A DNA stretch of 22,206 bases from a virus (lineage: Duplodnaviria; Heunggongvirae; Uroviricota; Caudoviricetes). The DNA is taken from IMG/VR virus record IMGVR_UViG_2529293040_000022; one strand, 5' to 3'. Below, in pieces: positions 9,001 to 12,000 of this stretch. Numbering within the stretch: position 1 is the stretch's first letter; each line of letters opens with the position of its first letter. The position numbers were made by a program.

Positions 9001-12000
9001 TTAAAAGGGCTGAAATGATAAAAGCCCCGAAAGGGGCTTCTATCAAAATCATTTACGCATTATTCCGCATGCTTAAAAGAATACATGACAGATTCGGACA
9101 AAATCAAGTGCAATGTCGCAAAAACCCTAAGCTTAGTTCACATCATCACCAAAACTTGTCACATTCTGAAAAGCAATATCGGCCTTACGCTCTTCCTGGT
9201 GGCAAATGTCAACCAGAGAATCAAGAAACGGCTTCCAATTACGCGTCCATGTCCTGACATGTAGCTCGGGTATCCGCTTCAGTACAACTTTATATACTGT
9301 GGTAGACGGTACCGTGGAAAATCCATTTCCGCTGCAACGTTCGCAGATTTTAAACACTGGCACACCACGCTCGCTTGTGGCTTTGCGGTCCAGTACCTCT
9401 CCCTTTCCACCACAACGACACCTGGCACTTATCACTCCCTTCCCTTTACATACATCGCAAACGACTGGTACAACTTCCGTTACCTCTGTCCATTTCTCCC
9501 AGTCTGACGGTCGAACAGCACGGGAGCGACTGGCCCAATATGGTGCTTTACCCCATGGGTATGAAACCTTACGAATGACCTGCTTACGGGGTGTTAGTCC
9601 GGTACCACTGCAACTATGGCATGTTACGCTGGTGTCCGCCGATCGGGAATACTCAGCAAAAGCAAACTGCGCCAGTACCAGCATACACCAGCCAAATTCA
9701 CCACCAGCTGCTTTACGCACATTCTTCGGTGCAATTTCCATCGCGTGACGCGCCAGCGCTTGGACTGCCATCTGCTCATCAGTCTTGCTGATACCGGCCT
9801 TCCCGAAGAAGGCCGCCAAGCCAAACCGTTCACGATTGCTGGTGGTACCAATAGCCGCCATAACATCGGTGCCTGTAAGACGTTCCGGAGAGGTTCCTTT
9901 CACATCGTCGCCGATATACATTCCCTGAGGACTGAAGTATTTTAGCGATGCCTCAAGCTTCATTATTCACACTCCCCAACCAGATTAAGAATAACCGCCG
10001 CGCCATTGTCTTTCATATATTCGCCCTTTCCGCTTGCCAAAAACCAACGACACACCTCCACTGCTTCAGCCCGTGTCACCGGTTTGATGGTCATCAGCAA
10101 TTTTTCAAGGTAGCGCTCGCGGTCATATACCGATTCGTGATGCTCAGAGTAACCATACTCATCGCCCTGTTCTTTAGACGCAGTGTGGCGAACACTGTAG
10201 AGCCAGTCCCAGTAAACAAACTCACGAACTACGTCTGACAATGTATGAGGCTCTGGCAGTACATCACGATAGCCATCAACATATGCACGACGCTGATCAT
10301 CAATTTCATTCATACGGATGCCATCAATTCTGCCCGCTGTCTTCTCGGCTGCAGTCCAGCCCCAGAGATGATCGTCGATAAATTTCTGGGAAGACTTGAT
10401 CACTCGCTCGGCTTCCACATCTTCGAGTGCTGCTTCATAGCTACCAAACGTAGCCCTGACTGATGTTGCTTTTTTGATATTCTCCCGGGCGATCCTGATT
10501 GCCTGTGCCGGGTTATCCATGCCGATGGTACCGAAAGCAATCTGGAAAGGATCACCACCATTCGCCAGCAGATAACGCGAATAGCGTTCCTGGGCCTCTT
10601 TTGGGGAAATTTTAATTTTCACCAGCGCAGCCTCAGCAGCATCCAGATGTGCGGGTTCGTTCAGACGGATAACCTCCAGCACCCAAAGATAAGCATCAGT
10701 CTGCTTATGCCCGGTGATTCTCCGTTGCTCTGGCAGGGGCTTGATGTTTGCGAGGGCGGAGCTGTACGCTGCCGTCGGGATGGTGAATAGTGCTTTATGT
10801 TCGTTGTTATCAGTACGCATTACGCAACCGCCTTTTTCTTATGGAAAACCAGCTCTCGAACCTGATCACCGTTCATGAGCATATTGTTGAAATCATCGTG
10901 ATCCGGCCAGTACACGCTCACGCGCTGCAGGTCATTCTTTGCCATCAGATTGGCATGAGCACATTCGCAAGCCGCAGCCAGCCCGGTGGCGCTGTTCTCG
11001 TCACGGTCGGCAAAAATAATCAGGTGCAGAACACCAGCTGGTACGCGGAACTTTTTCATAAAGCCGCTGTTAATGGTTGCCCAGGTGTTCACGTTATAAA
11101 TCTGGTGCGCTGACAGCGCTGTTTCGATGCCTTCGGCGATACCCAGAGTGCTAGCAACAGGAAACATGCGGATAGCTACAGAACGAGCGTGATCCAAATA
11201 GTTATCTTCCTGCAGGGATTTGAGGCGCTTTGCACTGCTACCGATATCTGCTTTTTTATCACCATCAAGCAGAGTCTGGTGCAGATAGCACAACTCCCCT
11301 TTATCGTCCGTAGCAAGTGAATAAAGAGACTGGAACACACTCCCGTTGTGTCTCTGCCTGGCATTGAACCGGATCGCCTCAGCAGGAAGACTGAATATTC
11401 CACGAGAATTAAGATACGCTGCGCCGGATGTACCACGCAGTGCCTCCAGTTTTGAAAACTTGCTCAATACCCGTTTGCGTAAGCTGGTGGCGCTGCTGGT
11501 TACCGGGATTTTAACCCGTTGGTAATCATTACCGATCAGGCGGTCTATTTCGGTACAAATCTCGTTAAATGGCTTCGCCTGTGTCAGGGTGACAAGTTTC
11601 ATACCATCGCCACTACCACATACACAGATCCACGTTCCTGCACCGTCGCGGTCATCAATTCGGAACTTGCCACGTGCACCGCATACCGGGCATTCACCCT
11701 TGAAGTGATTTTTTCCTGTTATCGGCGGCAAGCCGAAGTGCTCTAATATTTCAGGCCAGCGGCCTTTCGCTGCAGCTGCTGTTTTCATCTTACTGACTCA
11801 AACTGTTTATATTTTTCTGGAGTTGTTGCTTTGCTTGCATGATGCGCCAAGCCTCAGTGCCTATTGGCATCTCGCTTCGCTCACCTCGTTCCTGAGACAG
11901 AGGAATCGTTGCCTGCAATTTTTCTATAGTTCTCTGCGTCCGCTGACGGCCTTTGGCAAACCGAATCAGCTTGTGTTTGATGTAGTTACTTACTTCTGGG

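Follow-up and report, generated by a model that had tools for sequence, protein, structure and literature searches.

What does the gene in the antiterminator position of this prophage encode, and where do its cysteine repeats belong? The 22,206-nucleotide stretch of viral DNA that was analyzed (IMG/VR record IMGVR_UViG_2529293040_000022, Caudoviricetes; here called the window) carries on its minus strand a gene for a 276-residue protein with repeats of the motif CxxCxGxG, in the place where a late-gene antiterminator, Q, would be expected. The answer favored here, judging from sequence, is that the gene very probably encodes an ordinary λ-family Q late antiterminator of an E. coli lambdoid prophage close to the Stx2f phage φ467. 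Neither the protein nor its four-knuckle arm is new: NCBI holds an identical 276-residue protein ('prophage antitermination protein [Escherichia coli]') on 80 contigs, and the architecture is common to φ80 Q and to QuuQ of E. coli K-12. What changes is the family assignment, which is corrected from phage 82 to λ Q, and the standing of λ Q itself, whose structurally characterized form is the shorter and less common architecture.

The Q open reading frame (ORF) matches the Pfam profile of Antitermination protein Q (PF03589) with 175.3 bits (E=2.6e-52; the gathering score is 26.7) and, over its whole length, the PHROGs family phrog_127, 'anti-termination protein Q-like' (E=3e-98). Among PDB sequences its real matches are to λ Q alone (7UBM/7UBN, 4MO1, 7UBJ-L; best 7UBM_Q, E=2e-35), residues 1-123 aligning with λ Q residues 1-126 (E=3.4e-20) and residues 179-268 with λ Q residues 115-205. 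An AlphaFold2 model of the protein (142 homologues; mean predicted local distance difference test score, pLDDT, 85.6; topology read from secondary structure) has the fold of λ Q, with a Foldseek template-modeling (TM) score of 0.83 to 7UBN_Q. Homology and fold match to λ Q span the N-terminal region, body and arm of the protein. An earlier, sequence-only reading had proposed a Q-like antiterminator at this position; when similarity to any Q family was looked for, what was found was this strong PF03589 match, and the structure prediction that had been suggested as a check also led to λ Q. The resemblance to Qin that was proposed at the time is borne out as well, in that YdfT/QuuQ of the K-12 Qin prophage aligns with the same four cysteine motifs.

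Alignment with λ Q also assigns the parts of the protein that lie outside the arm (Table 1; numbering refers to the window protein unless λ Q is named). In λ Q, the N-terminal segment forms, together with NusA, a torus or nozzle at the exit channel for RNA, and the helix-turn-helix (HTH; helices H4/H5) reads the Q-binding element, QBE (PMC9388147). By analogy, residues 1-60 of the window Q would have the same exit-channel torus role. The first half of the body is modeled as two helices (residues 60-77 and 80-106). The second half is the part of the protein that is least conserved with respect to φ80 Q (26% identity), as might be expected of a region that determines DNA specificity.

The cysteine motifs are far above chance. 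Three strict CxxCxGxG motifs are observed, compared with 0.0025 expected per protein of such composition, and no shuffle out of 200,000 reached two; together with the variant CRCGGKG they make up the four knuckles that the sequence-only reading had pointed out. All eight cysteines are invariant in the alignment of 142 relatives (32-87% identity to the query). C182, C184, C207 and C210 align with the zinc ligands C118, C121, C144 and C147 of λ Q and are predicted to form a metal site here; the spacing of knuckles 3 and 4 (25 residues) is close to that in λ Q (26 residues), and the strand-helix-strand predicted between them is equivalent to B1-H3-B2 of the λ arm. That arm (λ Q residues 114-152) is a zinc ribbon that touches QBE positions 11-13, σ region 4 and the zinc-binding domain of the β' subunit of RNA polymerase (RNAP) (PMC9388147), and its own two knuckles, CRDCHGTG and CGRCKGVG, already fit CxxCxGxG. 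Thus, a cysteine-rich, zinc-dependent element that binds DNA and RNAP defines the family and comes as no surprise. The suggestion that such a module would stand out in an antiterminator, or would constitute a domain fusion, does not survive this comparison: the zinc ribbon is integral to λ Q and has been solved, and the four-knuckle form, φ80 Q included, is the commoner one.

The last point comes from a search of 1.84 billion cluster representatives (50% identity), from which 66 full-length sequences were aligned with the query and λ Q to give a sample of 68. Four knuckles are present in 33 of these (φ80 Q and K-12 Qin YdfT/QuuQ are among them) and two in 18, so that the four-knuckle form is the commoner and λ Q can be thought of as the reduced form. 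In the four-knuckle sequences, knuckle 1 is CxxC in 31 and CxC in none, while knuckle 3 is CxC in 24; the first knuckle of the two-knuckle sequences is CxC in 10 of 18. Among the 33, the loop that joins knuckle 1 to knuckle 2 is 6 to 55 residues long; knuckles 2 and 3 are separated by ~13 residues and knuckles 3 and 4 by ~25. A few representatives (P0188, P0200, P0203, P0208, P0235 and P0242) are fusions or truncations, with Qin-like C-terminal halves joined to unrelated N-termini or λ-Q-like proteins of 400-480 residues; these are probably products of pseudogenes or mis-called ORFs in cryptic prophages.

The Q gene stands directly upstream of a sequence unit that has the layout of a late leader, ahead of the lysis and late genes. 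This unit was delineated by aligning the 200 nucleotides (nt) that follow the Q stop codon in the window, in φ467, in Cronobacter phage ENT39118 and in two Klebsiella phages (Q 62-99% identical). The late leader of λ is composed of the QBE, a σ-dependent pause element (SDPE) and the terminator tR' (PMC9388147); counterparts of each are found, in the same order, in the conserved alignment (Table 1). The -10-like hexamer downstream of the predicted start, AATAAT in the window and TATAAC in its relatives, would by this analogy be the σ-dependent pause element. The RNA of the terminator hairpin folds with -26.6 kcal/mol (z=-4.6; none of 200 shuffles was equally stable), and in the relatives a GC-rich hairpin with a T-run occupies the conserved position, although its stem differs in sequence. 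Relative to the inducible phage φ467, conservation of the promoter, pause element and terminator is 100%. The GenBank record of φ80 annotates a comparable arrangement: a -35 element, a Q site (TCGCGGA) one base past it, a -10 element, and a terminator ~50-75 nt further on. Without Q, the late promoter of the window is predicted to yield a terminated leader RNA of ~54 nt. Short RNAs from late promoters are known for λ, 21, φ80, 82 and P22 (PMC7547250), and the predicted RNA (~9013..9070, minus strand) is the counterpart of λ 6S RNA and of the small RNA StxS of Stx phages (PMC7547250).

A mechanism can be outlined for the window Q, each step of which is transferred by homology from λ Q. The C-terminal HTH body and the zinc arm would bind the QBE in the late promoter that closely follows the gene, between its -35 and -10 elements, and Q would dock onto RNAP that is held at the σ70-dependent promoter-proximal pause. 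Together with NusA, the conserved N-terminal 60 residues would build a ring at the channel through which RNA exits, and RNAP thus modified would pass the terminator ~50 nt downstream, and later ones, into the holin-lysozyme-Rz, terminase and morphogenesis genes. On this analogy, it is highly probable that the protein serves overall as an antiterminator of the λ type.

Other identities for the protein have to be weighed against this one. Membership in the Q family of phage 82, which the sequence-only reading had proposed from the N-terminus, is hardly credible: that proposal is all that speaks for it (the position of the gene is equivalent in all Q families), and Yin et al. (2022) distinguish three families, Q21 (PF06530), Qλ (PF03589) and Q82 (PF06323), that share no detectable sequence similarity with one another (PMC9388147). 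The Q ORF matches neither PF06323 nor PF06530 in a Pfam search down to E≤10, it has no fold similarity to the Q21 family, and its strong homology to λ Q is full-length. Membership in either the phage 82 or the Q21 family was therefore rejected. A more substantial proposal is that a DnaJ cysteine-rich domain (PF00684) has been fused into Q, so that the arm would be a chaperone-like protein-binding module with interleaved zinc centers, knuckle 1 pairing with 4 and knuckle 2 with 3, as is the case for the motifs of DnaJ. The two are alike in their repeated knuckles, four per domain in DnaJ, and in an extended β-hairpin shape; the query has three strict CxxCxGxG repeats and one CxCxGxG, with first-cysteine spacings of 54, 13 and 25 residues, unlike the 17, 22 and 14 residues of E. 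coli DnaJ. PF00684 is matched at residues 169-215 (25.8 bits, E=1.3e-5), there is a weak match to TIGR02349 (DnaJ), many relatives carry PF00684 among their precomputed domains, and Foldseek returns a marginal structural match to DnaJA2 (E=3.9, probability 0.51). The Pfam match, however, is below the gathering cutoff of 32.7 bits, so that when Q and DnaJ profiles are set side by side the former stands far above its cutoff and the latter falls short. The arm alone, compared with PDB sequences, retrieves only λ Q and no DnaJ at E≤10, and neither a J-domain nor a DnaJ C-terminal domain is present in the Pfam search at E≤10. One of the knuckles is CxC, and the module is embedded in a protein that binds DNA and RNAP. 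As for pairing, the occurrence of CxC at knuckle 3, never at knuckle 1, and in the first knuckle of the short form points to knuckles 3+4 as the λ ribbon, and hence implies 1+2 for the remaining pair; the variable loop joining the first two knuckles would suit an excursion out of one metal site. In the AlphaFold2 model knuckles 1 and 2 lie at the ends of a long antiparallel hairpin, each in a β-turn, which is zinc-ribbon geometry. Two such knuckles already make one solved zinc ribbon in λ Q (PMC9388147). Two tandem ribbons, 1+2 and 3+4, are accordingly favored over the interleaved arrangement; the DnaJ fusion, set aside as the principal interpretation on the strength of the sub-threshold Pfam match, the PDB search with the arm and the family comparison, is very unlikely, and what stays of it is a weak structural echo.

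The remaining doubts concern function rather than identity. The role ascribed to the window Q derives entirely from homology; a generic promoter scan did not flag the predicted late promoter, which was found by comparative alignment and whose hexamers are weak and separated by 18 nt; and an IS66-family element beside the terminase gene raises the possibility of a defective prophage, in which Q might have no lytic cycle left to serve. All of these weigh against the interpretation adopted here. In its strongest form the objection is that an intact Q gene is the functionless relic of a defective prophage and has no antitermination role in this genome. The location of the IS66-family element immediately past the gene of the terminase large subunit fits such a relic, as do the fragment resembling a tRNA ahead of holin, where φ467 has tRNA genes, and the foreign, low-GC convergent ORF in the path of late transcription. 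Against this, the Q ORF is full length and identical to the protein on 80 contigs, all its zinc ligands are conserved, and the promoter is intact, as are the pause element and the terminator (all shared with φ467, as noted above) and the lysis genes. Moreover, a defective prophage would still offer Q its own late promoter to act on. A relic therefore seems unlikely, if less so than the fusion with DnaJ, and the λ-family antiterminator is retained.

Given a λ-family Q, the part that calls for separate consideration is the segment that λ Q lacks. A 66-column segment with knuckles 1 and 2 is extra in the query relative to λ Q and is also present in φ80 Q. Its hairpin strands (residues 123-134 and 157-168) are modeled with pLDDT ~90. 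Most likely, C115, C118, C169 and C172 hold a second zinc, by which the base of the β-hairpin 123-168 is clamped, and the extra module, which also occurs in φ80 Q, in QuuQ of Qin and in roughly half of the family, serves to lengthen the arm. As to its origin, BLASTP of residues 100-178 against residues 176-268 matched only short knuckle motifs (E=0.017-0.039), and internal duplication was dropped as the source of the module, there being no sign of it beyond the knuckle motif. The tip of the hairpin (residues 132-158) is 81% identical between the window and φ80 proteins, whose identity is 42% over the whole protein and 26% over the C-terminal body/HTH. Since the tip is so much better conserved than the DNA-reading regions, it suggests binding to a host component that is common to both phages rather than to phage-specific DNA. 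The hairpin loop is short or unrelated in many family members, and whatever it does should therefore not be essential to the mechanism of the family. It is possible, although we would put it at somewhat less than an even chance, that the zinc site and aromatic hairpin (residues 115-176), which occur in about half of the λ-Q-family clusters, make a contact of their own during loading; the partner would most plausibly be a host component such as the RNAP β' zinc-binding domain, σ region 4 or NusA. If so, the cryo-electron microscopy structures of λ Q represent the minimal and not the typical loading complex. None of the solved structures includes the second zinc/hairpin module, frequent though it is in the family.

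Table 1. Features of the window, with the Q gene and its parts first (minus-strand features are listed by lower coordinate, individual promoter elements in the direction of transcription)
Feature	Position	Strand	Remarks
Q gene	9133..9963	minus	276 residues, ATG start; λ-Q-family late-gene antiterminator, long-arm four-knuckle subtype
N-terminal region, residues 1-60	9784..9963	minus	homologous to the part of λ Q that, with NusA, refolds to form the torus/nozzle of the RNA exit channel
Helical body, first half, residues 61-111	9631..9783	minus	ends in conserved YSRSA segment; from λ Q alignment
Zinc knuckle 1, CHSCSGTG, residues 115-122 (C115, C118)	9598..9621	minus	not in λ Q
Long β-hairpin, residues 123-168	9460..9597	minus	links knuckle 1 to knuckle 2; tip aromatic and conserved (KVSYPWGKAPYW..SRAVRPSDWEKW); not in λ Q
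Zinc knuckle 2, CDVCKGKG, residues 169-176 (C169, C172)	9436..9459	minus	not in λ Q
Zinc knuckle 3, CRCGGKG, residues 182-188 (C182, C184)	9400..9420	minus	CxC variant; λ Q C118/C121 (CRDCHGTG) by alignment
Zinc knuckle 4, CERCSGNG, residues 207-214 (C207, C210)	9322..9345	minus	λ Q C144/C147 (CGRCKGVG) by alignment
Body, second half, residues 215-269	9157..9321	minus	includes region homologous to λ Q HTH (H4/H5); query 179-268 aligned with λ Q 115-205
Predicted PR'-like late promoter	9078..9107	minus	-35 TTGATT 9107..9102, 18-nt spacer, -10 TATTCT 9083..9078; conserved in five phages
QBE-like TGTCCGA (predicted)	9100..9094	minus	in promoter spacer; conserved in post-Q alignment
Predicted start and -10-like pause element	9059..9070	minus	start ~A9070; AATAAT 9064..9059; conserved block TGGGATATAACGCC / TGCGGAATAATGCG
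Predicted tR'-like intrinsic terminator	9013..9044	minus	GATAGAAGCCCC-TTTC-GGGGCTTTTATC then ATTT
285-residue ORF	9963..10820	minus	directly upstream of Q, stop overlaps Q start by one base (9963); phrog_6204, function not assigned there
Convergent 287-residue ORF	8087..8950	plus	~35% GC, flanks ~50%; phrog_7003 (unknown function)
tRNA 3'-end-like sequence	~7765..7830	minus	GGTTCGATTCCGGCCGCCA; upstream of holin
IS66-family element	1..2616	minus	523-residue DDE transposase 1..1572; three small ORFs 1593..2616

The closest relative of the window Q is the antiterminator of φ467 (CUW01236.1), which is 98.9% identical, has an identical promoter and terminator after Q, and lies in the same context of helicase, primase and 285-residue ORF. 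The difference is in what separates Q from the lysis genes: the stx2f A and B genes and a pair of tRNA genes in φ467, a convergent ORF in the window. In φ467 this Q allele and late promoter drive stx2f, which makes them relevant to toxin-expression typing. φ80 Q (gp17, YP_007947979.1, 269 residues) shares with the window protein its family, four knuckles and a β-hairpin of ~46 residues, and the phages share the layout of the late promoter, with the QBE between -35 and -10 at the same offset from -35 and an early terminator. The φ80 QBE, TCGCGGA, is unlike the QBE-like TGTCCGA of the window, and the replication and lysis modules are also different. The 250-residue YdfT/QuuQ (b1559) of K-12 belongs to the same family and has four knuckles (CEHCSGTG, CQHCHGKG, CRGCKGKG and CGRCNGNR), but is only 39% identical, differs in the loop that joins knuckles 1 and 2, which is shorter and unrelated, and resides in a cryptic prophage. 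λ Q (4MO1, 7UBJ-7UBN) has in common with the window protein the N-terminal torus region, the helical body with its HTH and the ribbon of knuckles 3 and 4, and its mechanism is presumed to be the same; at 207 residues it has neither knuckle 1 nor knuckle 2 nor the hairpin, and contains one zinc site as against two predicted for the query.

The surroundings of the gene are those of a lambdoid early-right operon, of which Q is the last gene. On the minus strand the order is a Cro-like gene, small ORFs, a superfamily 2 (SF2) helicase, a zinc-ribbon/Toprim primase, the 285-residue ORF and then Q; a cI-like S24 repressor gene is divergent from the operon. The 285-residue ORF has no Pfam or PDB match. 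At its position Cronobacter phage ENT39118 has a hypothetical gene of matching size, and a shorter HTH protein is encoded there in the Klebsiella relatives. Genes for a P21-type holin, lysozyme and Rz and for both terminase subunits, small and large, follow ~1.4 kb downstream. Q had been described as the last gene before the late leader and lysis cassette; it does lie upstream of both, but is not directly adjacent to the cassette, from which it is separated by the convergent 287-residue ORF and ~450 bp of non-coding DNA. The IS66-family element adjoins the gene of the terminase large subunit (3018..5075) and may interrupt the morphogenesis region.

ARAGORN (tRNA) and Rfam scans of the window called nothing; the sequence ahead of holin that resembles a tRNA 3' end is probably a tRNA remnant. 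In φ467 the equivalent gap holds tRNA-Thr and tRNA-Gly, and there is no collinearity between the two regions. The convergent 287-residue ORF, which has no match in Pfam, PADLOC or PDB, occupies the site where the near-identical φ467 carries stx2f, and is likely to be a moron or cargo gene. The terminator hairpin of the leader (9013..9050, both strands) has an A/T-rich run on its upstream side and a T-run on its downstream side, and it could also serve, weakly, as terminator for this plus-strand ORF, which ends at 8950.

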